Positions 6,254-63,297 of a stretch of 64,000 bases of DNA are shown in pieces. Under the pieces are notes generated by a model. That model searched no databases. It was not told the DNA's origin and saw only the letters and a list, made by a program, of their open reading frames with translations. How positions within the stretch are numbered: position 1 is the first letter of the stretch; every line of letters starts with the position of its first letter. Origin of the DNA: a virus (lineage: Duplodnaviria; Caudoviricetes); the IMG/VR virus record IMGVR_UViG_3300042545_000821, positions 36,770 to 100,769 of that record; one strand, given 5' to 3'. The position numbers were made by a program, and so were the translations under genes.

Positions 6254-6889
6254 TTAAGAACCAAAGGTTCCGTTTGCGTTGAATTTCTTAGCTGAACCGC
6301 TTTCTGTGTAGTTTGACGCAAAAGTAACGTCAAACCCTTCATGAACTAGAGTCATTTCTTCAACCATAAGAGTTGAAGATCCTGCGTCTAGGTTGCTGTA
6401 TCCAAGAGAGGTAATCCATGCATTGTGTACACGAAAACGCATAGAAGCATGCTGATCGTATGCTGTTGCTGCTGCTGCAGTACTAGCAGATCCAGCGTAT
6501 GCTGCTGGGTTTGGATGGCTCAATACTGCGATATCAATATCGCAACGGAAGTTAGCACCAATGCCGCTTGTAGCATTTGGTGTTAGTACTGAAAATAGAC
6601 GGCGCATCCACTTAGCGTGAGCATCATTTCCCAACATTACGCCCTTTGAAAGGCTAATTGGTCCAAATGAGCTTTGGCCAGGGATCTGGTGCACGTTTGT
6701 GTTGTAGCCGCCTTCGCGGTATGCGATTGACTCTGTTGTAACGCTTAGGCCGGAGAGTGAAACAAACCCCATTTTTCCAAATGAAGTCCCCCACTTACCG
6801 TCAGCGCTTTCTGGCAGAAACTCAACCACAAACTTAAAATTACGTACTGGATCTGTTGCCAGAGTACTTAAGGGGTTAGTATAACTCAT
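6254..6889 (-). CDS. tail tube protein (T4 gp19-like)
   Basis: DPVRNFKF.VE, SGLSVTTE.IAYREGG, ISLSKG, NAW....SNLDA...VEEMTLVHEG. Confidence 0.92.
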   Translation of the reverse strand: MSYTNPLSTLATDPVRNFKFVVEFLPESADGKWGTSFGKMGFVSLSGLSVTTESIAYREGGYNTNVHQIPGQSSFGPISLSKGVMLGNDAHAKWMRRLFSVLTPNATSGIGANFRCDIDIAVLSHPNPAAYAGSASTAAAATAYDQHASMRFRVHNAWITSLGYSNLDAGSSTLMVEEMTLVHEGFDVTFASNYTESGSAKKFNANGTFGS

Positions 6890-6903
6890 TTCTTTTTATC
6901 TCC

Positions 6904-8469
6904 TTACGCCGTAGCGTTTCCTGTTAGCTGACCAAGTTTGATGACAATAAACTCTGCTGGGTACTCTAGGGCTACGCCAATTTCAATATTAACGCGACCT
7001 GAAGTAAGGTCAGAGGCACTGTTTGTTGATGCATCGCATCGTACATAGAAAGCCTTATCTGGGCTTGACCCACGAAGTCCACCCTGTTGCCAGTATGAAC
7101 GTAGGAAAGAGCCAAGAGTTACACGAAGCTGAGACCATAGACGTTCGTCATTGTTCTCAAAAATCGCAAATGAGCTTCTATCTGTCATTTCTTTCTTGAT
7201 GTATATGAGGGAGCGACGTACGTTAATGTAGCGGTCTCCCGGGGTGTTATTCATTGTACGTCCGCCCATTACAACAATTCCGGCACCAGGTACTTGACGG
7301 ATTACGTTAATTGGACGTGATGAGACGTTCAAAGCGTCTAGTTGAGCATTAGTCAATTGACGTTCTGCAGATACTGCAAGAGCTACGCGGTTTGTATAAC
7401 CAGCTGGGGTCTTGAATACTCCACGAGAAGCGTCAGTTGCTAAATACTGGCCTACCATCGCTGCACCAGGTGCTTGATTGCGAGTTGCAGTAGATGAGGC
7501 ACGAAGTGTGTCTGGAATTGCTACCCATGGGTAGTAGACCGCGGCACATCCACCATCAGATGCGGCAATAAATGCTGCAGTTACGTCGTTTGCGTATGTT
7601 TGAGCCTCAGTTGGGTTAAGGCCTGCTGGGGTATCTACAACTGCAAACGCATCTCCACGACCTTCGCAGTAAGCTACAAGATCTGACTGAATGTTAATAG
7701 AGAGTGTTCGCTCAGTAGTAGTTCCTGCAGTATTGTACAGGTAGGCAGCTTCTGGTACGTTAAATATCAGAGGATTTTCAATTGGATCAAATGTCTCAAG
7801 AGCTGTAGAGTACTCAGTTCTTGTTGGTGCAGATCCGTTAAGGCCTGATATAAGAGTTTTTACTCCGTCAACCTTAGGCATATCGTCCGGAGATACAGAA
7901 GCTGAGTTTAGATCAGAAACTATAATAACGCTAGACTGTGAGTTAATTACTGATACGACATAACGTGGGTCAGTAGTAACCATGCTTAAATCTGTATACT
8001 GCTCAAGAATATTAGAGGTTGCGTTTCCACCAATAGTTGGAGCCCCATATACTACAAGAGAGAACCGATTTACCGATCCCGCAGCTTTTATTTCTACAGA
8101 TATAGAATTTCCCCAAGTACCAGCGTTTGCAGCTTTTACTAGAAGGGTGTTTAGGGGGGTAGCCGCACGATCAGTCAAGGTTACTTGAGCTTGTGCAGCA
8201 CCTGTTCCTACTACACGCTTTACGTATAGTTGACGGCCGCCATTAGCAAAAAAGTTATAGGCAGCCCAAGTTGTTGAATAGGCGTCTTCTAAAGCTCCAA
8301 AAGTCTTGGTAAAATCTGTCCAAGAATTTAGAAGAACAGGGTTAACTGAAGGTCCTTTTGATAATGGACCCACAAATGCTCCAATAGCGTTTCCGCTATC
8401 TGCAAGAGTTACTGCCTGTGGAAGTTCAACTTCCTGAATGAAAACGCCAGGTCTACTGTATGTAGCCAT
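6904..8469 (-). CDS. contractile tail sheath protein
   Basis: Y.RPGVFIQE, FFANGG, YYPW, RGVFKTPAG, YINVRR, FENND..LW, PAEFI. Confidence 0.95.
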   Translation of the reverse strand: MATYSRPGVFIQEVELPQAVTLADSGNAIGAFVGPLSKGPSVNPVLLNSWTDFTKTFGALEDAYSTTWAAYNFFANGGRQLYVKRVVGTGAAQAQVTLTDRAATPLNTLLVKAANAGTWGNSISVEIKAAGSVNRFSLVVYGAPTIGGNATSNILEQYTDLSMVTTDPRYVVSVINSQSSVIIVSDLNSASVSPDDMPKVDGVKTLISGLNGSAPTRTEYSTALETFDPIENPLIFNVPEAAYLYNTAGTTTERTLSINIQSDLVAYCEGRGDAFAVVDTPAGLNPTEAQTYANDVTAAFIAASDGGCAAVYYPWVAIPDTLRASSTATRNQAPGAAMVGQYLATDASRGVFKTPAGYTNRVALAVSAERQLTNAQLDALNVSSRPINVIRQVPGAGIVVMGGRTMNNTPGDRYINVRRSLIYIKKEMTDRSSFAIFENNDERLWSQLRVTLGSFLRSYWQQGGLRGSSPDKAFYVRCDASTNSASDLTSGRVNIEIGVALEYPAEFIVIKLGQLTGNATA

Positions 8470-8517
8470 TCGGTTTTACTCCTTAATATGTTAGGTTGTT
8501 TACTGTGGGTTCCGAGT

Positions 8518-9117
8518 TTATTGACTGATTGGTGTGAAATCTGTAAATTGCTCTTGTAGTGTGATGTTTGGTGGTGTTAGCACTTCGTATAGCTGTACAA
8601 GCTGAGCTGGGAGGAACTCCGAGCTAACCTGGACGTTGTAGATATTTTTAAACAAGCGCTTGTCTTGTTCAGTCGTATCTCGTTTTACAAACCCCATCAT
8701 ATCTATCCTGCGTACAGTGCCATCTTCAGGAATTACTAGGAGTCCAAATCTTAACGGTAATCTCGTTGGAGCAAATAAAGCATTTATAATTTGTCGATCA
8801 TGTCTAGGTTGACGAGCATATGTAGTTATTTGATAGTCTAAATTTACTGGTATTGGGTACCAGGTTGCGTAATCTACGTTTGCACTACCACCTTCAGGAG
8901 TATACGGCAAATCTATGTAACCTCTATGAGCCCTGTCTAGCGACTCAGCAATTCCTACAAGATCGATTGTAATATATGGGTAGCTCTGCTGACGGATTTC
9001 ATTATCTGGTTGTCCAAACCACACCCCTACAGGGCGAGTTGCGTTACCAGAGTCAGAAACAGTAATGCCGCTTATTAAAGTTTTTAACGCCTTATCTTCA
9101 TTAATAATATAGGGCAT
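8518..9117 (-). CDS. tail completion / sheath terminator-like protein
   Basis: Immediately upstream of sheath; YPYITIDL...PVNLDYQITTYAR. Confidence 0.6.
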   Translation of the reverse strand: MPYIINEDKALKTLISGITVSDSGNATRPVGVWFGQPDNEIRQQSYPYITIDLVGIAESLDRAHRGYIDLPYTPEGGSANVDYATWYPIPVNLDYQITTYARQPRHDRQIINALFAPTRLPLRFGLLVIPEDGTVRRIDMMGFVKRDTTEQDKRLFKNIYNVQVSSEFLPAQLVQLYEVLTPPNITLQEQFTDFTPISQ

Positions 9118-9443
9118 TACATTATCCCCGCTTCCATAAGTTTATCGAACCACTCGTCGCCAAGATCTGGTTCCATTCCACGAATGAAGTCTCTAATAAC
9201 TGGATTTGGGGGAGTAGAGTCAGTACCGTATTCAAGGTCAATTACCTGACCATCTATAGCTTTAGGGTACTTTACAGACCACTTGCCATCGGCTCTATCA
9301 TTAGAAACAGATAGTTGCATGACAACGGCAATAGGCCATCCAGCCTGTTGTGCATATTGTCTAAGGTTAGCGGTTAATACTACTGCTTCTTTAACTGCTG
9401 CTTTTGCGTAAGAATCTAAGAGGACTTTAGTTACTGAGTTCAC
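9117..9443 (-). CDS. putative neck/tail completion protein
   Basis: DLEYGT...PPNPVIRDF motif; coupled to the downstream gene. Confidence 0.5.
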   Translation of the reverse strand: MNSVTKVLLDSYAKAAVKEAVVLTANLRQYAQQAGWPIAVVMQLSVSNDRADGKWSVKYPKAIDGQVIDLEYGTDSTPPNPVIRDFIRGMEPDLGDEWFDKLMEAGIM

Positions 9444-9601
9444 TTCTTCTTAACCGCCGCAGTCAATACATACCCCGCAACAAATCCAGCTAAGAATCTC
9501 TTCTTACCCTTTTTGTCGTCAAAAGCTGTAAGGCCGCGAACGAACTCTACTCGGTCTGCATCAGACTGAGCTTGGTATAGCCGTTTGGCTAGAAGTATCA
9601 T
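9440..9601 (-). CDS. small hypothetical protein (53 aa, not in ORF track)
   Basis: GGAGG RBS; MILLAKRLYQAQSDADRVEFVRG...; stop overlaps the next start (GTGA). Confidence 0.65.
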   Translation of the reverse strand: MILLAKRLYQAQSDADRVEFVRGLTAFDDKKGKKRFLAGFVAGYVLTAAVKKK

Positions 9602-11403: not shown

Positions 11404-13149
11404 TTAAATTGTTCCTAAGAAATTATCAAGTGTTGATCCTTGAGACCCTGATGATGGGGCCTTAATTATACCTACTGAAGTTCCTTTTGTAGGACTGGTA
11501 GGCGTAATAACTATATTTGAGCCTAGCTGACTTGTCAATCCCGCAGAGGCGTAGGCTTTAGCGGTAATCTGGTTTCCAACAGTAGATACTATCAAAGATC
11601 CTACACTTGTGTAGCCAGAGTTTGTGTTGGTAGCTAAGCGGGTAGCAGATTGAGAAACCACGTTTCCAGACACCGAGCTAACAATAACAAGGTCTGTGTG
11701 GTAAGTAGTATCTCCACCAGAGTAAGATACGCCTGAACAGCAACCAGATGGTGTACATCCTGCCCCTGAACAAGTAGCCTGTCCTCCAGAGCAAGAGCTG
11801 CTAGTCCCTATTTGATTTTGGTTTAATCCTCCACACGCACCGCCGGTATAACAGTTAAACCCTGTGCAAGAAGCAGACCCTGTGCAGCTACTAGTCTGTT
11901 GCGTAGTTCCGCAATAGTATGTTGTTGGGGTGGTTGTAACTTGCGTATGACAATTATAATAATTAACAGATTCTTGGCGCGTACTTTGATTCCAGTTTCC
12001 AATACATTTTCCAGAGGTAACTGTTGAAGTTTCGCAGTTTTCCCAACAAAAAATAGTTTGAGTGCTGCAGTTGCCAACGCAGCTTGTGGTAACACTATCA
12101 CTAGTTCTACAGCAAACAAAAGCCGCGTTTTGAATACACTGGCTGCTAGTTGAGTTAGGTACTACTACGCTACCTGGAGAACAACCATCTCCGCCATATT
12201 GTGGGTTTTCTGCGGGGTAGTAAGAAAATCCGCTACCCGCACTAGTTACTGATCCAGAACATTGTGTACCACATGCAGGAATACTATAAGTAGTGTATTG
12301 CACACTTCCTGAGCACTGTGTTCCGCATTGAGGTATGACATAGCTAGTTGTAGTGCTCGTAGTTTGCTCGCGCAATGTGCCGGGGCAACAATTAGACGAA
12401 GGGGTGCCTGTCCAACCTAAATAAGTGTTTGTATAGTCACAAAAAGAGTTGTCTACAGACGAGGTAGAAGTATACGCAAATGTAGCCCCGCAACCTGAAG
12501 CGCATTGGCTAAGAAGAACACCATTTTGAAAGTTACTGCAGTTTGAGGTTCCTGGTACGGAAGTAACCGGAGAACAGCATCCTGAAGGAAGGCACCCGGT
12601 ACCGCCACCAGCGCAAGGACTAGAACTTCCATAACTTTGACTTCCAGTACAAGCAGACCCAACTTGAGTTGTATTCCAAGTAGAGTAGTAATAACTAAAA
12701 GATTGAGTGGTTGTGCAACTTCCTACAATAGCTGACGTAGACTGAGTATATTGAGGGTATGTGGCCCACCAAGACCCGGAGTCTGTTATCCAAAAAACAG
12801 CACCGGTTCCACCTGAAACATCTGCACTTACAGAAACATCCGTGCTACCTAAATTAGCTGAAGCGATCGGGTAAGAGCTTGCTGCATCATCTGATATTGC
12901 TGAGTTGGACCCACTAATACGCCAGTTTCCACGAAGTGCTGTCCATACTTGTCCGCTGTCCGCGGTGCCTAGGCCAGTAGCAGTTGACGCCCTATTAAAT
13001 GCGTCTTGAACTTTAGAGGCAAACCATTGTCTCCACACTCCGTTAATTTTAATGAATGCCGAAGTAACCGTTTTCCATTGACCGTTTACTTTTACTGAAA
13101 GACCAGATGCGGTCCTCCAGGCACCATTAACCTTGGAATTACCTGGCAT
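11404..13149 (-). CDS. Cys-rich tail fibre / receptor-binding-like protein
   Basis: N-terminal KVNG.W repeats typical of fibre tips; lectin-like flanks; central region with 36 Cys. Confidence 0.65.
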   Translation of the reverse strand: MPGNSKVNGAWRTASGLSVKVNGQWKTVTSAFIKINGVWRQWFASKVQDAFNRASTATGLGTADSGQVWTALRGNWRISGSNSAISDDAASSYPIASANLGSTDVSVSADVSGGTGAVFWITDSGSWWATYPQYTQSTSAIVGSCTTTQSFSYYYSTWNTTQVGSACTGSQSYGSSSPCAGGGTGCLPSGCCSPVTSVPGTSNCSNFQNGVLLSQCASGCGATFAYTSTSSVDNSFCDYTNTYLGWTGTPSSNCCPGTLREQTTSTTTSYVIPQCGTQCSGSVQYTTYSIPACGTQCSGSVTSAGSGFSYYPAENPQYGGDGCSPGSVVVPNSTSSQCIQNAAFVCCRTSDSVTTSCVGNCSTQTIFCWENCETSTVTSGKCIGNWNQSTRQESVNYYNCHTQVTTTPTTYYCGTTQQTSSCTGSASCTGFNCYTGGACGGLNQNQIGTSSSCSGGQATCSGAGCTPSGCCSGVSYSGGDTTYHTDLVIVSSVSGNVVSQSATRLATNTNSGYTSVGSLIVSTVGNQITAKAYASAGLTSQLGSNIVITPTSPTKGTSVGIIKAPSSGSQGSTLDNFLGTI

Positions 13150-14934: not shown

Positions 14935-14936
14935 GA

Positions 14937-15605: not shown

Positions 15606-15606
15606 A

Positions 15607-16233: not shown

Positions 16234-16243
16234 TTTGCGTCCT

Positions 16244-20527: not shown

Positions 20528-21295
20528 CTATTTGTATTCTCGTCTTGACCAAACACTATTTTGGTATACCCCGCCATCAGGCTGGCGATAAAACTGCATG
20601 TTATTAACTAGTTTATCATACATAGTAGATTGATCTGGGATCTCTATTTTATGTTCCCAGTTTTCTCTTTTAAACGGAAGAACCTGCATATACGGGGTTC
20701 CTTCCGGTAAGGTGCCTTCCCAGCCTTCTGGAAGAAAAAATGGAAAAGTTCCAAGTAAGTGAAGTTTATCTGAGTCCACAACGCCAGTAGTATTTAAAAA
20801 TGGTAAGTCAAACCTATTCATTGGTGTCATAAACAGTGCACTATACCCTTCTGGAAGCTCTAATCCCCAAGGAGAACTCCAGGCAAAGTGGGTTTGATAA
20901 TATCCTTTTGGGTGTTCAAACTGTGGCATTGGGGGCCTTTGTGTACAAAAATCTTGGTACTTAGGGTTATCAATTTTTACATCTATGACTCCCTGATCAT
21001 TTTTATAAAAAACTAGGTCGCATGGTGTTTTAAAAATGTACCCGGTTGTAAAGGCATCCATAATAGCGGGGCACGCTTTCCATGTCGGAATCTTTCCATA
21101 ATCATCAGTTGTGCCCTCTTTAGGAAACGGACAAACTTCTTTTGGCGCTTTGTAGTATTCCCCGTTTGGCATCTTTGCAAATCTGTCTGCATCTTTATAC
21201 CAGGCAGGAATTTGTGTTTGTGTTGGTACGGGAACAGAGATATGCTTTTTATCTATCCACGGCCTAAATGATCTAAATATGGCTACTAAAGACAT
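20528..21295 (-). CDS. DUF6065-related (dUTPase-fold-like) protein
   Basis: P.WYK...TWKACP...D....GY...PEGYS.LF..P.N...TGVVDSD...GTP.MQVLPFKRE.W. Confidence 0.55.
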   Translation of the reverse strand: MSLVAIFRSFRPWIDKKHISVPVPTQTQIPAWYKDADRFAKMPNGEYYKAPKEVCPFPKEGTTDDYGKIPTWKACPAIMDAFTTGYIFKTPCDLVFYKNDQGVIDVKIDNPKYQDFCTQRPPMPQFEHPKGYYQTHFAWSSPWGLELPEGYSALFMTPMNRFDLPFLNTTGVVDSDKLHLLGTFPFFLPEGWEGTLPEGTPYMQVLPFKRENWEHKIEIPDQSTMYDKLVNNMQFYRQPDGGVYQNSVWSRREYK

Positions 21296-23702: not shown

Positions 23703-25352
23703 TTAAGCTGTCAAGTCGCCGAAGACAACCCAGGTATTTTCTGCTCTTTTGAAAAGGGTGCATGAAGACCATTGGGTTCTCAGTTTTAATCCTGGTGTTG
23801 CGTTTACTGTTACTCCAGCAGCTCCAGCGATTGTTACCTGCCCTGTAGAAGTTTGAAGAATATCAATTGATGTTCCTACTGGGAAGGCTACTGCCGAGTT
23901 TAAAGGTATTGTGAGCGTCATGGCGGATGATGAAGCCATTTCAATTAAATCATCTCTTTCAGTCAATGCTGAAAGTGTGTAAGAGGCTGTCTTTTGAATA
24001 ATAGGGGTACGTGATGGGACGCCTTCAAGGGCCTGTGTTCCATCTGAAAAGACAATTCCTGCAGCAGGAAGAGTTACAGTGCCAGTAAATGTGGGAGAAG
24101 CAAGCGGGGCTTTTAATCCAAGATTAGTTGTTACTGTTGATGCAAAGTTTGCATCGTCACCAAGTGCTGCTGCAAGCTCGTCAAGTGTGTTTAAAGCTGC
24201 TGGTGCTCCTGAAAGCAATGCATTTACTTGTGATGTTGCGTCTGCAATTGCTTCTGATTTAGCAGTTGCAATTGCTGAAGCCTGCGCTGTTGATACCGGC
24301 TTTGCTGAATCTGCTGTGTCGTCAACGTTTCCAAGACCAACCATAGACTTGGTAATGCCAGAAACGGTTCCTGTAAATGTAGGGCCTGAAAGGTTGGCTT
24401 TTAAATCAAGAGCGGTCTGTTGCGCTGTTGATACCGGCTTACTTGCGTCTGCTGTGTTATCTACGTTACCTAGCCCTACGTGAGATTTAGTTACGCCTGA
24501 GACTGTTCCTGTGAAAGTTGGGTTAGCCAAGGGTGCATATGTAGAAGCCGCTGTTGCAGAGGCAAGTTTTAAATCAAGTGCTGTTTGTGTTGCTGTGGAA
24601 ATTGGCTTGTTAGCATCTGTTGTATTATCTACACTGCCTAGGCCTACATCTGATTTAACTAGTCCAGATGGAGTGGTAATTGTTTTATTTGTAAGGGTCT
24701 GAGTTCCAGTAGTTGTTACAAGAAGGCTAGTGTCTGTAATTCCATGAACATTTAATGTATCTGCTTCGTGAGTACCCAGTGACGTAGAGACTGCGTTAGA
24801 GGCTGCTGTATCAGCGTATGCTTTAGTTGCAAGTTCTGCTGTATCTGCAATCCCATGTACGGCCGTTGTGTCTGAGCTATGTGTGCTTACAGCCGTGTCT
24901 GCGTATGACTTTGTTGCAAGATCGGCGGTATCGGCTATTCCATGAACAGAGGTTGTATCTGAGCTATGTGTTCCTATCGCATTTGTTGCATATTCTTGAG
25001 TAGCAATTGTTCCTGTTGAATCTGGAAGAGTTAATGTTCTGTCTGCTGTAGGGTCTGCTACTGCAAAGGTAGTCTCAAAAGCATTTGCAGTTGTGCCCTC
25101 AAATACAAGGCTGGCACCAGTGTCAAGAGATACTGTGCCAGTAAAAGTCGGGGAAGCAATTGGTGCGTAAAGGCTGGCTGCAGCTGCTGGAGTTAGGGTG
25201 ATATAAGGTAGCGAAGCCCAAACTGTAAGTCCGTCTCCAACTTTAAGTTTCTTAGTGTCAGTCTCTACACCAACTTCACCTTCAAGAAGAATTGGGTTTG
25301 AGGCGGTCCACTCAGCCGCAGTTCCCCTGCGTAGTAGAATATTAACTGCCAT
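23703..25352 (-). CDS. tail fibre protein with Mtd-N/hyaluronidase-like N-terminus
   Basis: LRRGTAAEW...NPIL.EGE.G.ETDT.KLK.GDG; internal repeats DTT.VHGI.DT x3 and VGLG.VD.T.D..KP.STA x3. Confidence 0.85.
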   Translation of the reverse strand: MAVNILLRRGTAAEWTASNPILLEGEVGVETDTKKLKVGDGLTVWASLPYITLTPAAAASLYAPIASPTFTGTVSLDTGASLVFEGTTANAFETTFAVADPTADRTLTLPDSTGTIATQEYATNAIGTHSSDTTSVHGIADTADLATKSYADTAVSTHSSDTTAVHGIADTAELATKAYADTAASNAVSTSLGTHEADTLNVHGITDTSLLVTTTGTQTLTNKTITTPSGLVKSDVGLGSVDNTTDANKPISTATQTALDLKLASATAASTYAPLANPTFTGTVSGVTKSHVGLGNVDNTADASKPVSTAQQTALDLKANLSGPTFTGTVSGITKSMVGLGNVDDTADSAKPVSTAQASAIATAKSEAIADATSQVNALLSGAPAALNTLDELAAALGDDANFASTVTTNLGLKAPLASPTFTGTVTLPAAGIVFSDGTQALEGVPSRTPIIQKTASYTLSALTERDDLIEMASSSAMTLTIPLNSAVAFPVGTSIDILQTSTGQVTIAGAAGVTVNATPGLKLRTQWSSCTLFKRAENTWVVFGDLTA

Positions 25353-28862: not shown

Positions 28863-28890
28863 GATTATTATTCTCCTGTAAGTTTGTGTT

Positions 28891-28916
28891 GGGGGCGGAT
28901 TTTAAGGCCCGCCCCC
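28891..28916 (-). terminator. GC-rich hairpin after the major capsid gene
   Basis: GGGGGCGG...CCGCCCCC; no U-tract; followed by CAACACAAAC. Confidence 0.55.
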
Positions 28917-35700: not shown

Positions 35701-36317
35701 GTGTTCTTCTTTATTTGAAGGGCTCTTGCGCCTCTATAGGCTAGATACCGTAGTTTAGGTGGTAGGTCTGAAGTACTTGCGGGACCTCTAGGTTTAAAGT
35801 TTAAGTGGTCTGATATATACGCCCACTTAGTGGTTAAACGTTTGAAATCTCTCCATTCGTCAATACTAACATCGTAATAGTTATAAATTGTTGAGTCCCT
35901 AAATACAAGCGTTAAGACAGATCTTTCTGGCGAGTAAGATGCCGCAACAGTTCGTGGCCTATCAATTTGGCTAGTTTGTGTTGGGACCTCTGTAAACTCC
36001 TCATCATCAAAAGGTGCGGGGCCATAGGCGGGGTCGTCTTCTGGATAGATGGCAAGAGCATCATCACCAGATCTATACGGACCAGTCTGGTCAATATTAT
36101 ACCCAGCGCCTCTAACGTCAATGTCTTTGTCTATATCTGACCCAAAGGTTTCTAAAACCTCTGTAAAGTCATATCGACCTTTTTCGTAAGCACTACGAAC
36201 ATTTGCTGGCAAGCCCTCTAAATACTTTTGCTGGTCTACTTGATTTCTTACGCTACCAATTGCAGACCTTGCTTTTCTGGCAGCTATTTGCGCTGGAGTT
36301 AGTTTTCTTTCTGCCAC
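35697..36317 (-). CDS. KTSC-domain protein
   Basis: ASY.PE...L.LVFR...IYNYYDV....W..F. Confidence 0.7.
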   Translation of the reverse strand: MAERKLTPAQIAARKARSAIGSVRNQVDQQKYLEGLPANVRSAYEKGRYDFTEVLETFGSDIDKDIDVRGAGYNIDQTGPYRSGDDALAIYPEDDPAYGPAPFDDEEFTEVPTQTSQIDRPRTVAASYSPERSVLTLVFRDSTIYNYYDVSIDEWRDFKRLTTKWAYISDHLNFKPRGPASTSDLPPKLRYLAYRGARALQIKKNT

Positions 36318-41352: not shown

Positions 41353-41381
41353 AAAAAGCCCGCCAAACTGGCGGGCCTTTT
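41353..41381 (-). terminator. rho-independent terminator
   Basis: GCCCGCCA-GTT-TGGCGGGC followed by TTTTT on the minus strand. Confidence 0.8.
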
Positions 41382-41394
41382 GTTTGTGTTGAGT

Positions 41395-45613: not shown

Positions 45614-46392
45614 TATTTCTTATTTCCGTTTCCTTTGGGGGCAGTAAAAAATACTCCCTGAGCAGCTTTTGCTAAATCTGGATCTTCTTTACTTGGGTCT
45701 GCTTTTTTGCGCCTCGTTCCAGTTGCAGCTGGTTTTGCAGCTGTTGGTTTTGCAGTTTGTGTTGCAGCACCGCCACCGCCTGGAGGTGGAGGAGGTGGAT
45801 CATTTGGCTTATCTGGTTTTGTACGTTTGCGTCTACCGCTTGGCGTAAATTGATTTAAATATGATTCTTGATTTCCACCTGCAGTTACGTGCGCACCAAA
45901 GTCTGCGCCTAGTTTAGGACTAATGCCTGCTTCGGTACCAAACTCGCCGCCAGTTGCTTGTTCAAAGTCAATGTTTCCAGACTTAACTGCGCTAACAGTT
46001 GCTGCAATACTTCCACCCTTAGTACGCTTGCCTGTTCCTTTTGGTTTTTTTGGTGGTGTTCCAGGAGTATCTCCGGTTGGGGTTGGTGTTGGCTTGTACC
46101 CAGACGTGTAACGAACACCAAAAGCTTGTTCTATTCCTTCACCATCTCGACGGCGCCTCTGTAAATCATTTAAAGTCTCTGTTTGGAATTCACGCGTATT
46201 ATCTTTACGTGTTTTATCTCCAGCAGAACGAATAATTTCTCGCTGGTATTCCATTGATAATTGGTTTTGACTTCTTAAAGTTTGAGTGAAAGCACCAGAA
46301 ACCATAGCACCTAGTTTATCTAGAAATCCGCTACCACCGCGTGTAGCTTGCGGTACATTGCGACCTTGTCCTTGTGGTTGATCAAGATTCAT
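45613..46392 (-). CDS. basic Gly/Pro-rich hypothetical protein
   Basis: 259-aa ORF, TAATG-coupled. Confidence 0.75.
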   Translation of the reverse strand: MNLDQPQGQGRNVPQATRGGSGFLDKLGAMVSGAFTQTLRSQNQLSMEYQREIIRSAGDKTRKDNTREFQTETLNDLQRRRRDGEGIEQAFGVRYTSGYKPTPTPTGDTPGTPPKKPKGTGKRTKGGSIAATVSAVKSGNIDFEQATGGEFGTEAGISPKLGADFGAHVTAGGNQESYLNQFTPSGRRKRTKPDKPNDPPPPPPGGGGAATQTAKPTAAKPAATGTRRKKADPSKEDPDLAKAAQGVFFTAPKGNGNKK

Positions 46393-49288: not shown

Positions 49289-49763
49289 TACTCTAGGCTA
49301 CTGCCTCCCTAGCCGTATCGCCTGCGTCAGTCCGACCAGGTTATCGGCTAGGGGGTAGGGCTGTTATCAGGGTATTAGGGGAAGTCAAGGGCTAAGCCAA
49401 TAGTCCTTGGCCTCTCAACTCTACACGGTGCTACCTTCCCCGTACCGTGTAGGGCTGAGGGGTTCATACCCCTTACATCAGAGGATACGGCGATACCTGT
49501 GGGAATCAGGAGACTGTTAGGCAATCCCGAAGTACACCCTAACCGCTAATGGCACGAAGATAACTACTCTGTTCTGCCTTCCACAATGGGGGGTGGGTAT
49601 GCCTATGTGTTTCGACACAAACCGTATGCCCGCCCCCCATTTCTCCACCCAGTTAGGTGGTGGAAGGTACATAGGTCGTGTAGAGCACCAACAGCAGAAC
49701 ACATAAAAGCATTCCTATGTGCCTCTCACTCTCTACCTGAGAGTATCTACCAAGGAGGTTGCT

Positions 49764-50674: not shown

Positions 50675-50984
50675 CAACACCAAGCCTGCCAACACAAACA
50701 CCGCCACCACCTATGCCAACATCTGCGCTCGACTGCGCTATGTACGGCAACTCAAGGGGTGGACACTTGATGAGGCAGCAGCTAAATCCAATGGCAAGCA
50801 CAAAGCCAATGTAATCGGTTCTTATGAACGCGGACAGCGGTCAATCTCAGTGAAGAAACTCATTGAGTTGGCCCGCCTGTACGATGTGCCTATTACCGAA
50901 TTCTTTGGCATCCCCGATCAAAATGATAAGTCACAGGCACTCATTGACCTGTTGATTGACCGCCTACACGCACAGAAGGGATAA
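50667..50984 (+). CDS. XRE helix-turn-helix regulator, BldD N-terminal domain-like
   Basis: LRYVR...KSNG..KA.VIGSYERG.R.ISV.KL.ELA.LY.VPI.E resembles the Streptomyces BldD DNA-binding domain. Confidence 0.8.
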   Translation: MFNNTKPANTNTATTYANICARLRYVRQLKGWTLDEAAAKSNGKHKANVIGSYERGQRSISVKKLIELARLYDVPITEFFGIPDQNDKSQALIDLLIDRLHAQKG

Positions 50985-51896: not shown

Positions 51897-52157
51897 ATGG
51901 AAGGTGAGATCATTTTCTACAACGGGTTCAACCTATTGGTTGACCTTATCATCGCGGGTGCTGTGTTCTACTTCACCCGTCGCTTTATGTACCGAGCAGG
52001 TTGGCACGATGGATACACCGATGGCTTGTCTGATGTTCAAGACGGCCTTGTATACCTGGAAGAACGAGATGGTGTGCTTGAATGGATACCAAACATCGCA
52101 CCAACACAAACAACCCCCGACCGCCCCGCTTTATTCGTAGTGCCTGAGGCTAACTAA
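51897..52157 (+). CDS. membrane-anchored hypothetical protein
   Basis: AAGGAGG RBS; N-terminal TM; Y..GW.DGY.DG. Confidence 0.7.
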   Translation: MEGEIIFYNGFNLLVDLIIAGAVFYFTRRFMYRAGWHDGYTDGLSDVQDGLVYLEERDGVLEWIPNIAPTQTTPDRPALFVVPEAN

Positions 52158-53028: not shown

Positions 53029-53033
53029 GTAAG

Positions 53034-53107: not shown

Positions 53108-53259
53108 CGACACACTTCAAGAGGAGGGAGTGTCTTTGGTCTGACAAGACCTAAGGTAAAACATGGCCCGTGAGCAACGGGGTATACCTGCTACCTGTCC
53201 TGAGCACGACAAGGATAAACTGCTCAACACAAACAAACCCGCACACAGAAAGGCAAACC

Positions 53260-54528: not shown

Positions 54529-54799
54529 CGTTGGGGCAGAAGCATAATGATTAGCCAATCTGCGTAGGTATCCCATGGGGAAACTATTCCTACTGAGTAA
54601 CTAATCAAAACTATTGAACCAGATCCAACTTCTTGAATCGGTACTGCTGGTGTTGCAGCGCTCCACAAGAGCTAAGTCGGAGACGGATTCGTACAGCATG
54701 ACTGTGCATCCAATGTCAAAGAGAGATTCTAACTACAGGTGCGGTGATGTAGGCGCTTCTGTCTCAACACAAACAAACTAAATCAACATAGGAGGTTAT

Positions 54800-55475: not shown

Positions 55476-55496
55476 CTCATAACTATAGGAGGAACA

Positions 55497-55688: not shown

Positions 55689-55795
55689 CCTTCCCAGCGT
55701 GAGTGGCACACATTGAGGTTCGAGTCCTCTACACGCACGGCGGGCGACTACATCGGGTAGTTGCCTTAGCTATAAAGAAAGTGGAAGGACAGATT

Positions 55796-57205
55796 ATGAA
55801 AATAGCTGTTTTCGTAGAAACGTATACGCCGACTATGGGAGCTGATCATCGTCAAGTAATGATGATTCCTCATAACGATACAGTACGTGTCTTTACTCGT
55901 TTAAGCGATGGCAATAAAGGTTATGGCAATCGCTGGGATGAATCAGACATCGAAACTGTAGTCAATGCTATGGACGCAAGTGAATCCATCACGTGTATTC
56001 CATCAGGTGTTCGACTCACTGCTAAGGACATTGAGGCGCTTGACCTTAAAGGTTATGCTCCGGTACTAATGACCAAAGCAGTCAACGCACATCTAAAAGC
56101 GCTACCGTTTAATGAAGAGACAGACGCTGCAGAGCGTATCTGTGCTCTTTATCAAGACGTATCTGTTCAGAGTTCTAGCCTCGAAGATCTAATCATTGAC
56201 CTTCGTAGCCAGGCTCCGGCATCACCGTTCCTTCCGCAGTCTGCTCCAACACAAACATCCACGGCCAATAACCTTGATGAACTACCTCGCGTAGCACTCG
56301 CAAGTATCCCCCCAATGGATCGCGCAAAAGCCTATATCAGTCGTGACATCGTAGGTATTCAAGACCTAGAAGTGTACGACAAGGCTCGCGCTAACAAGTT
56401 TGATGTTCTTATCTATGGTCCAACCGGTCCAGGTAAGACATCATCCGTAGTTGCATGGGCTGCATCACGGAAGCTACGTATGGCAACTGTATCTGGTAAC
56501 GCTGCACTCGAACCAAGCCAGCTCATCGGTAAGTATATTCCCGATGGCAAAGGTGGCTTTGTATGGATTGACGGCCCAGTAACAGATGTTGTACGTAATG
56601 GCGGTGTTCTATGTCTTGATGAGGTTAACTTCATCAGCCCTAAAATCTATACCGTCCTGTATTCGTTGCTTGATGACCGCCGTTGTTTAATTCTACTCGA
56701 CCATATGGGCGAGACTGTAGAGGCTCATCCAGACCTCACAATCTTTGCAACCATGAATCCAAACTACATTGGCACTACGCCTTTGAACTTTGCATTCCGC
56801 AATCGCTATGTCGTACAAATCCCTTGGGACTATGACGATAAGGTCGAGGACAAGCTTGTGAAGTCTCAAGCACTCAAGGTTCTAAAGAACCAGTTGCGTG
56901 CTGAAGCTAACAAGGGTGAGTTCGAGACACCAATCTCAACTAACATGCTGATGGAGTTTGAAAAGCTCGTCAAGGTGTTCAGCTTTGAGTTTGCCGTTGA
57001 GAACTTCATTGCTCACTTTGAGCTAGAAGAACAAGACAAGGTGCGACTTGTATTCACTACACATGAATACAATCTGAAGTCTGATTTTGATCTAGTTGAA
57101 GTACTTGATCAAGATAAGGGTGAAGACAGTGAAGGTCTCGGAGAGAAAATTGCAACCGAGGCTGAGAACTGGCTATCATCAAACAACACTCCAACTAATC
57201 CATAA
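55796..57205 (+). CDS. MoxR-family AAA+ ATPase (CbbQ/NorQ/CobS-like)
   Basis: GPTGPGKT, W.DGP, LCLDEVN, ATMNP.Y.GT..LN.AF..R; start moved to MKIAVF. Confidence 0.9.
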   Translation: MKIAVFVETYTPTMGADHRQVMMIPHNDTVRVFTRLSDGNKGYGNRWDESDIETVVNAMDASESITCIPSGVRLTAKDIEALDLKGYAPVLMTKAVNAHLKALPFNEETDAAERICALYQDVSVQSSSLEDLIIDLRSQAPASPFLPQSAPTQTSTANNLDELPRVALASIPPMDRAKAYISRDIVGIQDLEVYDKARANKFDVLIYGPTGPGKTSSVVAWAASRKLRMATVSGNAALEPSQLIGKYIPDGKGGFVWIDGPVTDVVRNGGVLCLDEVNFISPKIYTVLYSLLDDRRCLILLDHMGETVEAHPDLTIFATMNPNYIGTTPLNFAFRNRYVVQIPWDYDDKVEDKLVKSQALKVLKNQLRAEANKGEFETPISTNMLMEFEKLVKVFSFEFAVENFIAHFELEEQDKVRLVFTTHEYNLKSDFDLVEVLDQDKGEDSEGLGEKIATEAENWLSSNNTPTNP

Positions 57206-57214
57206 GGAGTAATC

Positions 57215-59179
57215 ATGGGATACCACGATAGTATAGATAATGGGTATCACAGTGAGGCTCGTACAGAAGAGAAACAAAAGCGTGCTCTACGTCTAGGCAC
57301 ACTCGCAAGAGTGTATCAAGGCGCAGACCGCATTCTTACTGGCGACCCACTAGTGGTAAACATAGTTGACAGCGGACCAGCACCTGCTTGGTCTGACGGC
57401 GCATCCATAACTCTCAATGCTGAATACATCAATGAGATGGACTTGGAAACGCTAGTACAAATTAACGGCCTCAATTACCATGAGCTAGCCCATCATTTGT
57501 ACACACCACGCAAAGGTACTCCGCTAGTACAGTGGGTTATCGAGAATGATCTATTCCAAGCATTCAATATCTTGGAGGATCAACGCATCGATACTCTGCT
57601 GTGTGCACGTTATCCATCAATCATGCCATTCTTGGAAGCTACAGTCTTACGGTATCTAGCCGATAAGCCTGAAGAAGCCATTGGTAATTACTTGGTGGTG
57701 CGTGGTCGTAAGTATCTACCAGTTGAGGTACGGCAAGGCTTTAGAGATATATTTATAAGGCCTGATCTAATACCAGCCATCTGCAGAATAGTTGATGAGT
57801 ACAGAGTTCTCGCATTCCCTAGGGACTATGCGCGAGCGCAAGAACTTATCAAGCAACTCTATGATGAAGTGTTAGTTCACTTGCCTATACCTTGCTCTGG
57901 TGGCGTATCACAATGTGGTCATAGGTCTCCAATTCAAAAAGGCAGACCAGAACCTGGCAAGATGCAGGAGTATGACTCAAAGCGAGCTAAGGGAATGGGT
58001 GTTGATGAAGCACCTTATGTACCTATGACCGCTGAAGAAAAGCAAGCAGCTGACGAGATGCTAGATAGCATAGACAGAATGTCTAATGCTCCTGGCAATG
58101 TTAATGATGGTGAAGAAGAGGAATCAAAACCACTTGGTGAAGATCCATTGGCTGATCTACTAGATCAGATCCAATCTTCTGAACAAGCATTAGCAAAGCG
58201 TGAGCAAAGCATATACACAACACCATCTGTTGGACAAGGCCATGTAGATAGTGTGGGAGGAATCCCAGATGATCTACAAATTACGTTGAACAATGCCCTG
58301 AACAAGGTGCATGAACGTAAGGATGTATTGGCTGATGTTAAGCGCAAGCAAAGCATCGTTATTGGTGGTGATGATAAGAACGCTGAAACAGGCAGAGCTG
58401 GCAAGTTTGACAAGGCCGATGTGCCTAGTGCAGCAATGGTTGCCTATCGTAAGTTCGCACACGAGCTTCAAAAGCTTCGTGATGACGCAGAACCATTCTG
58501 GGTTAAAGAGATGCCTTCCGGCAAACTCAATGTACCTAGACTGATGCGTGGCGAAGTTGAGATAGACAAAGCGTTCGACCGCTGGACAGAACAAGACGAC
58601 AGCACAGATATCGAAGCAATCATCTGCGTTGACCGCTCAGGTTCTATGGGCAGTGGTAACAACGATCAGATGGCATCTATTGCATGCTGGACTATTAAAC
58701 GTGCTCTCGAGCATATCAATTGTCCAGTCACAGTGTATGCCTTCGACGACAAGACTGAGGTTGCCTACACTCGAACAGAGAAAGCAGACAAAACTCAGTT
58801 CAAATTCATCTACGGCAACGGTGGTACTGAGCCATACGAATCACTAATCCTAGCGGAGAAGACTCTTATGGCATCCACTCGTAGCAATAAGATGTTGTTC
58901 ATCATTACAGATGGTGTGTTCAACACAAACAAAAATGATGAAGTCATAGCACGTATGGCAAAACGAGGAATCTTAACCTCTCTTGTACTAATTATGAGAA
59001 CTAAAGACTACTTAGATGCTAAACGATCTAACGAAGAGGCCATTAAAGAAGGTAGGTCAGCACGTTGGGAGCTAAGACATGGGGCGGAAATATTCGGCAA
59101 TGTTAATAGTGCTGCTGACTTAGTTCCCCTAGCCCGTGCAATCGTAACCGGAGCAATCCGCAAGAAATCAAGGAGGTAG
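57215..59179 (+). CDS. vWA-domain partner protein with N-terminal HExxH (CobT-like)
   Basis: HELAH...N.LED.RI; MIDAS DRSGSM...GGT...ITDG. Confidence 0.88.
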   Translation: MGYHDSIDNGYHSEARTEEKQKRALRLGTLARVYQGADRILTGDPLVVNIVDSGPAPAWSDGASITLNAEYINEMDLETLVQINGLNYHELAHHLYTPRKGTPLVQWVIENDLFQAFNILEDQRIDTLLCARYPSIMPFLEATVLRYLADKPEEAIGNYLVVRGRKYLPVEVRQGFRDIFIRPDLIPAICRIVDEYRVLAFPRDYARAQELIKQLYDEVLVHLPIPCSGGVSQCGHRSPIQKGRPEPGKMQEYDSKRAKGMGVDEAPYVPMTAEEKQAADEMLDSIDRMSNAPGNVNDGEEEESKPLGEDPLADLLDQIQSSEQALAKREQSIYTTPSVGQGHVDSVGGIPDDLQITLNNALNKVHERKDVLADVKRKQSIVIGGDDKNAETGRAGKFDKADVPSAAMVAYRKFAHELQKLRDDAEPFWVKEMPSGKLNVPRLMRGEVEIDKAFDRWTEQDDSTDIEAIICVDRSGSMGSGNNDQMASIACWTIKRALEHINCPVTVYAFDDKTEVAYTRTEKADKTQFKFIYGNGGTEPYESLILAEKTLMASTRSNKMLFIITDGVFNTNKNDEVIARMAKRGILTSLVLIMRTKDYLDAKRSNEEAIKEGRSARWELRHGAEIFGNVNSAADLVPLARAIVTGAIRKKSRR

Positions 59180-59183
59180 AATC

Positions 59184-60367: not shown

Positions 60368-60561
60368 AAGATGTCATAACAGAGACATTGATCGGACCGT
60401 TTGATACAGAACAAGATGCGGTTGACTTCCAACTGCATGCTTCTGACTTACTGTCCGATGTAGATGCAGGCTCTGAGTTAGAAATCCACGAGCTATTCAC
60501 TGCACAAGACTGGGCATTCCAGAACCTTGATGAAGAGGTAGCTTCTACCGTATCAATCTAG
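60355..60561 (+). CDS. small acidic hypothetical protein
   Basis: GGAGG RBS; IGPF.T..DA. Confidence 0.7.
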   Translation: MYVVKDVITETLIGPFDTEQDAVDFQLHASDLLSDVDAGSELEIHELFTAQDWAFQNLDEEVASTVSI

Positions 60562-60569
60562 GAGGAATC

Positions 60570-61115
60570 ATGGGTCTAGACAATATACCCAGAGTATTGC
60601 CCTGCAAAAAAGCAGGAACAGCGATACTAACAATATCACAAAACCCAGCTAAGACAGATAGGGTTGACTGTGATGCTACACAAGAAGCAGATCGATGCCC
60701 GTATGTAACAGAGCGCAGGAAAGCTATTGTTAACACGGGAGTCACAGGCATAATGGGTACCGACTGTTGGTACAGAGGTAAGTATGGAAACTATCTTCTG
60801 GAACAACTAGGCCTCGACACAAACACCTGGCACTTCTACGGAGATCTAGATGATGATGAGGGTCTAAGCGAAGACTACTGTCGTAATCTAGCCTCTCGCA
60901 TACGTGAAGAGCTAAACAAAATGAATAGAGTAAAAACCTACAAAGATAATGCCCCTAAGACTCTTGCGGAACCATTCTCTGGTGCTGTAGGGTGGCCAGG
61001 AGCATATGAGCCGCAAGAGGAGCAGAAGAAAGAGTTCGAGGAAGACCTCGAATATGCTGCTTGGTGGCTTGACTTTGTAGCAGATAACGCAGATGGATCG
61101 TCCGTCTGGTATTAA
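60570..61115 (+). CDS. hypothetical protein (MGLD-start phage family)
   Basis: MGLDN...CWYRGK. Confidence 0.75.
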   Translation: MGLDNIPRVLPCKKAGTAILTISQNPAKTDRVDCDATQEADRCPYVTERRKAIVNTGVTGIMGTDCWYRGKYGNYLLEQLGLDTNTWHFYGDLDDDEGLSEDYCRNLASRIREELNKMNRVKTYKDNAPKTLAEPFSGAVGWPGAYEPQEEQKKEFEEDLEYAAWWLDFVADNADGSSVWY

Positions 61116-61126
61116 GGGAGGCAATC

Positions 61127-61753: not shown

Positions 61754-61773
61754 TAGAAGGGGAAGTACAACCA

Positions 61774-61977
61774 ATGTCACAGCAAGACCCTTTCATCTCA
61801 ATCCAGGTAACGTTCGAATGTCGCCTGTATCACGGCAGATTAAAAACTCCACTAAGCCTGGAGAATAACTTCCTGCTATACATACGCGACCAATTCACTA
61901 CAGGCTGGCTTGACAGAAACCAATTGCGACCCGGGGAAGATATTTGTATCATTGATGCAAAAATTATTTCCGAATAG
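61774..61977 (+). CDS. hypothetical protein
   Basis: In operon. Confidence 0.55.
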   Translation: MSQQDPFISIQVTFECRLYHGRLKTPLSLENNFLLYIRDQFTTGWLDRNQLRPGEDICIIDAKIISE

Positions 61978-62075
61978 TTTGACATATTGACGGGCCCCTA
62001 GGCAATGCAGCCGTGCCGTATTGCCTAGGGGACTTAAGAACCCTAGTAGAGGAAGGAGTTCAAGGAAAGTATATC

Positions 62076-62597
62076 ATGGTGAATACATTCCTGCCTTACG
62101 CCGACGAAATAAAGACGGCTAGGGCATTAGACGATAAACGCCTAGGTAAGCAACGTGTAGAAAGCCTACAAATATTAAAAGCTAATCTAGGTATGACACT
62201 TGGATGGAGAAACCATCCAGCAGCTGTAATGTGGAGAGGACACGAAGGTCTTCTCTGCGTATACAATCTTCGTATATGCGAAGAATGGAAAGATCGTGGC
62301 TATCAAGACACGGTCTCAACACAAACACAGGACATCATGAACACCTTAGAACCAACCGCATTCAAGCGACCTTGGTGGTGGGGTAATATTGATTTCCACA
62401 GGAGTCATCAATCAAACCTGAACAGAAAAGATCCTCATCACTACAACTTTGATGTTCCGGATGACTTGCCATATCTATGGCCAAAAGAACAAGGAATACT
62501 ACTAACAAAGGAAGAATCAAATGCGATCAAAGCTCAATTACTCATTCAAGCTCGCAAAAAATCAAGAGAAGAGCGGAGCTTGGCTGGCAACAGTTGA
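62076..62597 (+). CDS. pyrimidine-dimer DNA glycosylase / endonuclease V family (MSMEG_6728-like)
   Basis: TFLPY....TA..LD.KRLGKQRVE..QI...W.NHPA..MW.G...H.SHQSNL.RKDP; start moved to MVNTF. Confidence 0.85.
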   Translation: MVNTFLPYADEIKTARALDDKRLGKQRVESLQILKANLGMTLGWRNHPAAVMWRGHEGLLCVYNLRICEEWKDRGYQDTVSTQTQDIMNTLEPTAFKRPWWWGNIDFHRSHQSNLNRKDPHHYNFDVPDDLPYLWPKEQGILLTKEESNAIKAQLLIQARKKSREERSLAGNS

Positions 62598-62769
62598 GAT
62601 AACTGGAGACTCAGATGCAGTCCCTGAGGAATCAGTTATTCATTCTGCCTGGACAAGCGTTGCGCCAGCAAAGCGTTGGTGTGCTCAAATGGTTAACCGT
62701 AAATCTATCCGCTGGACAGCTGATGAAGAAAGCAAAGTCTTTACAGCTACCGTAGAGGTAAAACTATGA
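62521..62769 (+). CDS. hypothetical protein
   Basis: AAGGA RBS; overlaps the tail of the previous ORF. Confidence 0.6.
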   Translation: MRSKLNYSFKLAKNQEKSGAWLATVEITGDSDAVPEESVIHSAWTSVAPAKRWCAQMVNRKSIRWTADEESKVFTATVEVKL

Positions 62770-62900
62770 AAAACGTTTGGGAGTCATCAATAACTACAGA
62801 GATGGTCAAAGATCTTAACCCTAACGAAGTAGAGGTCTTGATAGCTGACCTAGACGATGCGGTAATGCTTGTATGCCAGGACTTCGGTATAGAAGGTTAA
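62766..62900 (+). CDS. small acidic protein (44 aa, not in ORF track)
   Basis: GAGG RBS; MKNVWESSITTEMV...LDDAV. Confidence 0.6.
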   Translation: MKNVWESSITTEMVKDLNPNEVEVLIADLDDAVMLVCQDFGIEG

Positions 62901-62991
62901 ATGTCCACAAGCAAAGATGCAATACAGAAACAAGCAGAAGAATCTATCGATCGAATAAAGCAAATAGTAACAATAGAGAAGGAGTATATGC

Positions 62992-63213
62992 ATGAGTTCT
63001 ATCGAGAGGGAGATTCTTATACAGAGTCAGATCTTGGAGCACATGAACTTGACTATCTCAAAGATTAATCAGCACTTTGCTGAGTATCTAGAGCGCCAAA
63101 CAAAGATAACCGAATGCACCTTATGTTATGGTCAGGGAGTTATTTACTACGGCAATGAGGAGGACTATACACTTGAGTCCTGCCCCGACTGCAACTACAA
63201 AGAAAAAGAATAA
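62992..63213 (+). CDS. small Zn-finger protein
   Basis: AAGGAG RBS; CTLCYGQG...CPDC. Confidence 0.7.
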   Translation: MSSIEREILIQSQILEHMNLTISKINQHFAEYLERQTKITECTLCYGQGVIYYGNEEDYTLESCPDCNYKEKE

Positions 63214-63216
63214 AAG

Positions 63217-63266
63217 ACAAATCCCAAGTTAGAGACCTATTGGCTGGTTTCTAACTTGGGATTTGT
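63217..63266. terminator. bidirectional terminator at the convergence of the early and replication blocks
   Basis: About 21-bp stem ACAAATCCCAAGTTAGAGACC / GGTTTCTAACTTGGGATTTGT. Confidence 0.8.
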
Positions 63267-63297
63267 TTGTGTTGGGACCGGGACCGGTGACGTGTGA

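Follow-up and report, generated by a model that had tools for sequence, protein, structure and literature searches.

A strongly selected, strand-oriented ten-base word over part of the genome in a group of ~100-kb tailed phages

The ten-base word CAACACAAAC occurs in 16 exact copies, nine on the minus strand and seven on the plus strand, in a 64,000-nucleotide (nt) stretch of viral DNA (the window; bases 36770-100769 of the 100,769-bp IMG/VR contig IMGVR_UViG_3300042545_000821, referred to as G000), and the whole contig holds the same 16. The genes of this phage are arranged in two divergent arms: a long arm on the minus strand, running from contig position 85,121 down through position 1 and, the two contig ends overlapping, round to ~100,270; and a short arm on the plus strand at 85,509-99,366 (window 48,740-62,597). 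Here we show that the word is strongly selected at the nucleotide level, and a word kept letter-exact by selection must have something specific reading it. To account for the facts, the word must be recognized exactly, by a reader whose specificity changes from lineage to lineage, and its function must call for copies at intervals over the 55-60% of the genome proximal to the divergent junction. Our tentative interpretation is a DNA control site linked to transcription, with roughly equal weight given to a site that blocks or pauses RNA polymerase and to a minimal class-specific promoter; this is preferred because of the gene-following orientation of the copies, their excess just upstream of ribosome-binding sites, and their likeness to stoperator arrays.

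An earlier examination of the window that used no database searches (the sequence-only reading) had reported these copies, and all of them were recovered at their positions with none missed, together with both one-mismatch copies spelled CGACACAAAC (Table 1). The enrichment is far beyond compositional expectation: one hundred dinucleotide shuffles of the window gave a mean of 0.18 copies and a maximum of 2, and an order-3 Markov model of the contig, under which CAACACAAAC is the most enriched 10-mer, predicts 0.25, which bears out the k-mer enrichment that had been proposed. Loss of the enrichment under a codon-aware null model had been named as grounds for refutation, and the enrichment was not lost. 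In 1000 synonymous-codon shuffles, which preserved every protein and the codon usage of each gene, sense copies within open reading frames (ORFs) averaged 1.59 (standard deviation 1.16, maximum 5) against 12 observed, and antisense copies 0.009 against 0. The in-ORF copies use two reading frames, as the frame comparison suggested in the sequence-only reading revealed, eight beginning at codon position 2 and four at codon position 3. Given this codon-shuffle excess, the use of two frames and the conservation of a copy in an ATPase linker amid differing flanks, selection acts on the DNA word and not on a peptide.

The word is also remarkably strict. One-mismatch copies number 9 in the window, and the dinucleotide shuffles give 5.43 for zero or one mismatch; in 12 genomes of the clade (1.15 Mb) we counted 73 one-mismatch copies versus 159 exact ones, with ~94 expected by scaling up from the window shuffles. 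Near-variants therefore stand at about background, and recognition is sharp. The extended consensus is Y-CAACACAAAC-A, the preceding base being C or T in 60 and the following base A in 50 of 65 copies from six genomes.

That the word has no function and only reflects base composition, Thr/Pro/Gln-rich linkers or common ancestry is extremely improbable. Such an origin would suit some of the copies in the window, which lie in Pro/Thr/Ala-rich linkers, as well as an anti-oriented copy that encodes a conserved reductase peptide, and G421, an unrelated 321-kb jumbo phage contig in which 20 of the 21 copies fall in Thr/Pro/Gln-rich coding stretches of very large proteins. These lie at 38-51 kb and 145-152 kb of that contig (L306, L307), and illustrate that the word can arise without a DNA-level role; the same holds for L188 and L199, belonging to G421 and G422, whose copies are nearly all in Thr/Pro-rich coding stretches. 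Against a by-product stand both excesses given above, including the one obtained with proteins fixed, the 67 of 159 clade copies that lie outside ORFs of at least 100 amino acids (aa), the invariance of the word amid divergent flanks, the even spacing of copies and the lineage-dependent spelling. A 14-letter extension of the word was found in 120 stretches, 8 of them with at least 3 copies, of which 3 are from this clade; in L232 and L233 the copies are closely packed and resemble tandem repeats.

Conservation in related phages, the lack of which the sequence-only reading would have taken as grounds for dismissing the word, was established at two scales. Relatives are abundant in IMG/VR, where one scan matched at least 600 related capsid stretches, and 599 of the matches listed encode a relative. 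Across 80 related capsid loci (874 kb), 65 copies are on the strand of the capsid gene and 1 on the other; furthermore, all 15 further large contigs carry the word, with 2-18 copies each versus 0-2 for the reversed-word control. Particular places are conserved as well. In 28 of 76 related loci the word comes directly after the GC hairpin of the capsid gene, with 23 different sequences as the spacer, and the stem of that hairpin changes by paired substitutions among relatives. Of 25 related loci, 23 have the ATPase-linker copy at one shared place, surrounded by 18 distinct 70-nt contexts, within ATPases that are 54-61% identical in 23 loci and 96% identical in two; there, copies are embedded in otherwise divergent coding linkers and the word is invariant. 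The place orthologous to the 41382 copy is occupied in G001, G002, G004 and G005, and the convergent junction at the end of the short arm holds a copy, or the variant spelling of the lineage, in most relatives. In the window, the complement of this junction copy forms, on the plus strand, the T/G-rich tail of the last terminator of the short arm.

The spelling itself differs between lineages. In L110 it is mainly CGACACAAAC, the one-mismatch form seen twice in the window, and L120 uses CAACGTAAAC and CAACATAAAC (CAAC[G/A]TAAAC), with no copy of the original CAACACAAAC; in both, the copy at the convergent junction takes the local spelling. The Streptomyces phage LuckySocke has neither a copy of the word nor a comparable word. 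Homology with the close relative G006 resumes 7 nt before the copy at 54765, and of 388 homology breaks, 20 are no more than 25 nt from a copy versus 8.8 expected, a comparison in which pairs are not independent and both breaks and copies favour gene boundaries; the coincidence of copies with mosaic joints is thus weak.

The claim that the word is always co-oriented with transcription stood within the window, where all 16 copies agree with the local ORFs (the copy at 63265 lying in the convergent gap), and did not stand in the clade. Inside ORFs of at least 100 aa, 81 copies of the 12 genomes are co-oriented and 11 anti-oriented, and a coarse strand map of all 159 gives 132:27. Markov models trained on sense-oriented sequence predict ratios from 1.9:1 (order 0) to 5.1:1 (order 4), composition favouring co-orientation because the coding strand is A-rich; as a caution for similar findings, an A/C-rich word is expected to show a 2-5:1 bias to the transcribed orientation from composition alone. 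Polarity beyond composition was demonstrated only for the short arm: in short arms of the ATPase type, 99 copies are co-oriented and none anti-oriented (17 partly redundant loci), versus 2.9-4.8:1 from composition. Where genes are locally reversed, their copies are also reversed (G001 81511, G012 95414, G006 40191). About five independent anti-oriented copies occur inside long-arm genes. One anti-oriented copy, beyond the convergent junction, was considered as support for a polarity set by the genome ends and was discarded, being explained by a conserved reductase peptide that it encodes in 9 of 33 sequences.

The G004/G005 sub-lineage has a different short arm, in which the word is reversed and lies between plus-strand genes, inside a repeated intergenic element. 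Six copies of this element were found in the non-homologous short arm (G004 17,800-22,700 and G005 900-1,900; L094-L095, L105), each ordered as a terminator, the complement of the word, a C-rich box (GCCCRCCCNCCCC), a TAAGGGAAT-like sequence, an AT-repeat and GAGAG stretches. Two of them carry TGTGGATAA words, which we take to resemble DnaA boxes. These elements may be promoters, small RNA genes or an origin.

The signal was first described as genome-wide, which it is not: the word is confined to the short arm and the junction-proximal 40-45 kb of the long arm. The contig is copy-free from 100,034 round the circle to 43,464, i.e., over 44,199 bp (P = 0.003 if 16 points are placed at random). 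In 11 of 11 complete genomes the region homologous to it is likewise copy-free and forms the longest interval between copies, measuring 37-46 kb in nine and more in two. As a fraction of the genome it amounts to 0.38-0.46, and to 0.72 and 0.94 in two copy-poor genomes. The zone spans the tail tape-measure gene and the baseplate, replication, lysis and ribonucleotide-reductase genes.

Within its territory, the consistent home of the word is the short arm, with up to 11 copies in 12 kb. Copies there are spaced by ~1.1-1.8 kb, more evenly than random in 10 of 10 arms tested (coefficient of variation 0.23-0.45, P from <0.00005 to 0.037, smallest spacing 579), and this evenness is maintained because copies are embedded inside two long genes. 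Overall, 58% of the 159 copies lie inside ORFs of at least 100 aa and 42% outside. In the short arm, 27 of 101 copies end 15-45 nt before a Shine-Dalgarno sequence and start codon, versus 8% for random positions, and the distance from word to start codon is not fixed. Three layouts recur: a stop codon, the word, an A/C-rich spacer and a ribosome-binding site; the capsid-gene hairpin and then the word; and the word, 4-7 nt and a terminator hairpin. The three copies that the sequence-only reading had placed against terminator-like hairpins (28882, 41382 and 63265) do adjoin such structures, and the two it had placed shortly upstream of gene starts (53225 and 54765) each precede an ATG by the same distance (Table 1). 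A scan of window positions 47500-64000 for sigma-70-type promoters returned 22 sites versus 28.2 in shuffles. In G003 and L110, ARAGORN called no tRNA directly after the word. Parts of the short arm are covered by contigs of four metatranscriptome runs from three studies, these contigs being without strand, start or end and possibly including DNA carry-over, and no position was seen at which molecules begin or end in numbers.

The same layouts could be read at the level of RNA, as a single-stranded A/C-rich site for an RNA-binding protein or endoribonuclease that punctuates polycistronic transcripts or times their decay. The strict co-orientation in the short arm, the copies between a stop codon and the next ribosome-binding site, and those adjoining structured RNA (after the capsid-gene hairpin, before terminator hairpins, downstream of a tRNA) agree with such an element, and the copies inside long genes and their even spacing suit a decay signal. 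We nevertheless regard it as quite unlikely: reversed copies are conserved in the G004/G005 intergenic element, the anti-oriented in-gene copies of the long arms include only one that the reductase peptide explains, and 40% of the genes, those in the empty zone, would lack the signal. Moreover, scans of the conserved small proteins gave no RNA-binding or RNase candidate common to the clade, and the tRNA was the sole Rfam match in the window.

In the reading that we tentatively favour, the word, or more fully Y-CAACACAAAC-A, would be a cis-acting recognition word on the phage DNA. A lineage-specific factor would read it and act on RNA polymerase that transcribes in the word's own direction, both the binding of a protein and the transcriptional target being deduced from the arrangement of copies, which would form a transcription-control array along the two divergent arms. 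One option is a lytic-phage counterpart of a stoperator array, in which the bound factor would block or pause elongation; the other is a minimal class-specific promoter. The genes of the distal 40% presumably use other signals or are reached by read-through, so that no copies would be needed there. Several observations weigh against this interpretation. Most of the overall orientation bias is what composition gives, and the G004/G005 sub-lineage has the word reversed relative to its short-arm genes. Several copies stand 4-7 nt before a terminator hairpin, where a promoter would be senseless, and mid-gene copies in long genes, as well as even spacing, are not needed by a promoter or operator. 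There is no copy in the divergent intergenic region (48353-48739), the expected place of a primary operator or of early promoters, and the start of the empty zone falls within the tail module instead of where one functional module gives way to another. The unenriched one-mismatch variants are stricter than is usual for regulator sites. A lysogeny-type immunity is unlikely because no integrase or resolvase was found in the contig, and no reader protein was found among the clade-conserved proteins scanned.

Regarding the reader, the sequence-only reading had put forward two short-arm proteins. The HTH_3 protein encoded at 50667-50984 is present only in the two closest relatives, G006 and G007 (2 of 22 sequences), and cannot be the common reader; WhiB has homologues also in the motif-free LuckySocke. 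The ATPase and vWA pair was likewise rejected as the sole reader, since G004 and G005 are without both genes, yet carry 11 and 8 copies. Among 62 proteins scanned in Pfam and PHROGs there was no sigma factor, RNA polymerase or conserved repressor, although small divergent sigma-like proteins could escape such a scan, and the small clade-conserved proteins without a LuckySocke match yielded no DNA- or RNA-binding family except for a DnaD/O-like protein with a weak winged-helix match.

One resemblance is to stoperators. According to excerpts of a study of these sites, they are asymmetric, distributed throughout the genome and mostly in one orientation relative to transcription, and their motif co-varies with the repressor (PMC6550527). 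Like the stoperators of Cluster A mycobacteriophages (L5 and Bxb1 type), the word studied here is short and asymmetric, is present in many copies, differs in spelling between related phages and, to a degree that composition largely predicts outside the short arm, is oriented with transcription in two opposed arms; the lineage-specific spelling thus parallels the pairing of stoperators and repressors. Unlike in Cluster A, no conserved repressor gene or integrase was found here and the early promoter region has no copy; moreover, most copies are in ORFs of at least 100 aa, no copy occurs in 40% of the genome and one-mismatch variants are unenriched. Three defining features of Cluster A were looked for and not found, and therefore the word is not a member of that system.

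A second resemblance is to the nick sites of certain virion DNAs. As described in the available portion of a study of Pseudomonas putida phage tf, its sites are a 9-bp asymmetric word in 14 copies, 11 of them in one half of the genome; a site with a change at position 1, 3 or 4 escapes nicking, and counting any single substitution gives only 17 sites (PMC3517423). The same portion reports that relatives of tf have similar site positions with a different main spelling, that sites occur wherever the word fits, and that in tf, T5 and phiKMV-like phages all nick sites are on one strand (PMC3517423). As far as these excerpts go, the localized single-strand interruption (sci) sites of tf, phiKMV and T5 resemble the present word in being an exact word of ~9-10 bp with ~14-16 copies, unused near-variants and crowding in one part of the genome, and also in their similar positions and altered spelling in relatives and their occurrence in coding DNA; here, the likeness is at the sequence level. 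A nickase that cuts the word-bearing strand late in infection would accordingly suit near-variants at background, the lineage-dependent spelling, the conserved empty zone, the large share of copies inside ORFs and, weakly, the homology breaks near copies. We consider this role unlikely. Going by the same excerpts, the strand constancy of sci sites differs from the switch between arms seen here, even though 10 of 11 copies in G004 are on one strand. No HNH domain was matched in the contig, nor was any other nuclease candidate tied to the word, and the enrichment before ribosome-binding sites is not predicted, though permissive intergenic DNA could explain it.

The copies could also have a polarity set by a genome end or replication landmark, as a DNA signal that tames an end-entering helicase-nuclease, in the manner of Chi, or steers a translocase, in the manner of KOPS. 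Motifs of that kind are exact oriented words of 5-8 bases over-represented across the host chromosome. In likeness to them, two opposed groups of copies flank the divergent junction, one spanning ~42 kb and the other 14 kb, with their G/T-rich complements converging on it, and in LuckySocke the virion ends (a 345-bp direct repeat) are at the equivalent junction. The sharp exactness and even spacing would suit such a signal, and the contig encodes a RecA-like protein, a Cas4-family nuclease, an SNF2 helicase and a weakly matched Mu Gam-like protein. Even so, this account is decidedly improbable: the word is longer (10-12 bases), the contig ends of this phage and its relatives fall at various places, copies in locally reversed genes follow the gene and not the arm, and the short arms of G004 and G005 show the opposite polarity. 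Also, the Chi-like enrichment across a host genome that had been envisaged was absent from the 406 genomes searched, though the true host may lie outside them. These comprised 401 genomes of one phylum, reached via a WhiB match, and 5 genomes with WhiB hits, G020 being counted in both sets as a WhiB-hit genome and as the centre of the 401; seven of the 401 are unpublished (G038, G068, G140, G194, G246, G259 and G356), and the claim is independent of them. Counts of 0-22 per genome in the larger set, with 22 copies versus 15 for the reversed-word control at the highest, and of 0-3 in the smaller set were not above that control. As regards a possible ribosomal-operon antitermination box, five small genomes gave no 16S match, and in four of them the word lies in stretches unrelated to one another, the contigs compared showing no detectable similarity. 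Considered jointly, a phage-owned polar signal outside transcription, whether programmed strand-specific nicks or a Chi/KOPS-like word in two opposed arrays converging on the virion ends, read by a phage enzyme whose specificity drifts with the lineage, is somewhat unlikely.

Two further systems bear on the promoter option and on gene boundaries. The late promoters of T4 are short, near-invariant, co-oriented words, often located just upstream of a gene or inside the preceding one, in part of the genome. The present word differs from them in containing no T and not being AT-rich, no phage sigma factor or polymerase was found, and some copies abut terminators whereas others are kept in the middle of long genes. 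The start-associated sequences of Cluster K mycobacteriophages are reportedly repeated oriented words at gene boundaries in early regions of variable gene content; here, by contrast, the distance to the start codon is variable, many copies are intragenic and copies coincide only weakly with mosaic joints. Short oriented words that recur along a phage genome are a known kind of feature. In the literature searched, we did not find a description of such a word combined with regional confinement, even spacing in coding linkers, arm-dependent strand and drifting spelling, and in titles and abstracts, supplements not being opened, neither the word nor its complement was found as a phage signal.

These uncultured freshwater phages of ~100 kb are common in lake metagenomes, and three studies have RNA libraries that contain fragments of this short arm. 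Identification of the reader would establish the first regulatory circuit in the group. Should the copies instead be nicks or end-directed signals, they would add a case to a feature of phage DNA that is poorly understood, and a polar DNA signal would be the first of its kind in actinobacteriophages and the first whose marked strand changes from one genome arm to the other.

Table 1. Copies of the word and associated hairpins in the window (window coordinates; distances in nt).
Feature	Position	Strand	Context
Exact copy	6695..6704	-	In ORF 6254-6889, tail-tube homologue; last before the motif-free zone
Exact copy	11620..11629	-	In ORF 11404-13149 (581 aa, no family)
Exact copy	21216..21225	-	In ORF 20528-21295
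Exact copy	24583..24592	-	In ORF 23703-25352 (tail-fibre-like)
Intergenic copy	28882..28891	-	Right after GC hairpin downstream of major capsid gene; 19 nt before GTG of next gene
GC-rich hairpin after capsid gene	28891..28916	-	-21.3 kcal/mol for the folded 69-nt stretch
Exact copy	35974..35983	-	In ORF 35697-36317, upstream of terminase-portal-capsid block
Intrinsic-terminator-like hairpin and T run	41353..41377	-	
Intergenic copy	41382..41391	-	3 nt after stop of ORF 41395-42450; 4 nt before terminator hairpin
Exact copy	45755..45764	-	In ORF 45613-46392, Ala/Thr/Lys/Pro-rich stretch
One-mismatch copy CGACACAAAC	49613..49622	+	Spelling is the main variant in relative L110
Exact copy	50690..50699	+	5' end of HTH_3 ORF 50667-50984, overlapping first codons
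Exact copy	52102..52111	+	Near 3' end of ORF 51897-52157; 45 nt before next ATG
Exact copy	53225..53234	+	25 nt before ATG 53260; downstream of tRNA-Met 53034-53108
Intergenic copy	54765..54774	+	25 nt before ATG of WhiB gene 54800-55093
Exact copy	56247..56256	+	Linker of AAA_5 ATPase gene 55703-57205
Exact copy	58921..58930	+	In vWA gene 57215-59179; same place in G001, G003, G006, G007
One-mismatch copy CGACACAAAC	60815..60824	+	In ORF 60570-61115
Exact copy	62317..62326	+	In pyrimidine-dimer glycosylase-like gene 62013-62597
20-pair hairpin, bidirectional terminator	63218..63265	.	Convergent junction
Exact copy	63265..63274	-	Convergent junction, abutting hairpin

The phage is probably a lytic one of the myovirus type, of ~100 kb. 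Profile matches identify a tail sheath, a portal, a large terminase and a major capsid protein in the window, the last being 71-73% identical to those of the Streptomyces phages LuckySocke, Alone3, BRock and GiJojo; the long arm is colinear with LuckySocke, no near-identical DNA was found among named phages, and neither Phage_integrase, Resolvase nor HNH domains were matched in the contig, whose G+C content is 43%. The short arm encodes HTH_3, WhiB, tRNA-Met, the AAA_5 ATPase, the vWA protein and the pyrimidine-dimer glycosylase-like protein. The overlap between the contig ends (G000 1-190 and 100,580-100,769) covers ~190 bases with at least one mismatch and lies inside a class II ribonucleotide reductase gene, located at the end of the empty zone and spanning the contig ends; the break is an assembly cut and not a virion end.

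Other genes of the empty zone (G000 1-43,463) encode DnaD/O-like, DnaC-like, DnaB, primase, SNF2 helicase, DNA polymerase, RecA-like and Cas4-like proteins. The gene for the DnaD/O-like replication initiator (L185:7811-8698, minus strand; weak winged-helix match) is in this zone, and thus an origin may be nearby inside it. The Mu Gam-like match is at L185:1397-1840 on the minus strand (Pfam E-value 7.5e-4), and the syntenic LuckySocke gene is annotated as a host nuclease inhibitor. The first long-arm genes (window 46854-48352, minus strand) include ones that match Hsp20/alpha-crystallin and a proteasome subunit (Pfam E-values 7e-14 and 2.9e-7). Some ten consecutive minus-strand ORFs of 171-257 aa at window 14419-22002 are without a LuckySocke counterpart. 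Finally, a 622-aa protein (window 39454-41322, minus strand) carries a long Pro-Glu-Pro-type repeat, which accounts for another strand-biased word, CCTGAGCC (15 copies on the minus and 1 on the plus strand), and for a peak of G+C and GC skew at 40-42 kb.

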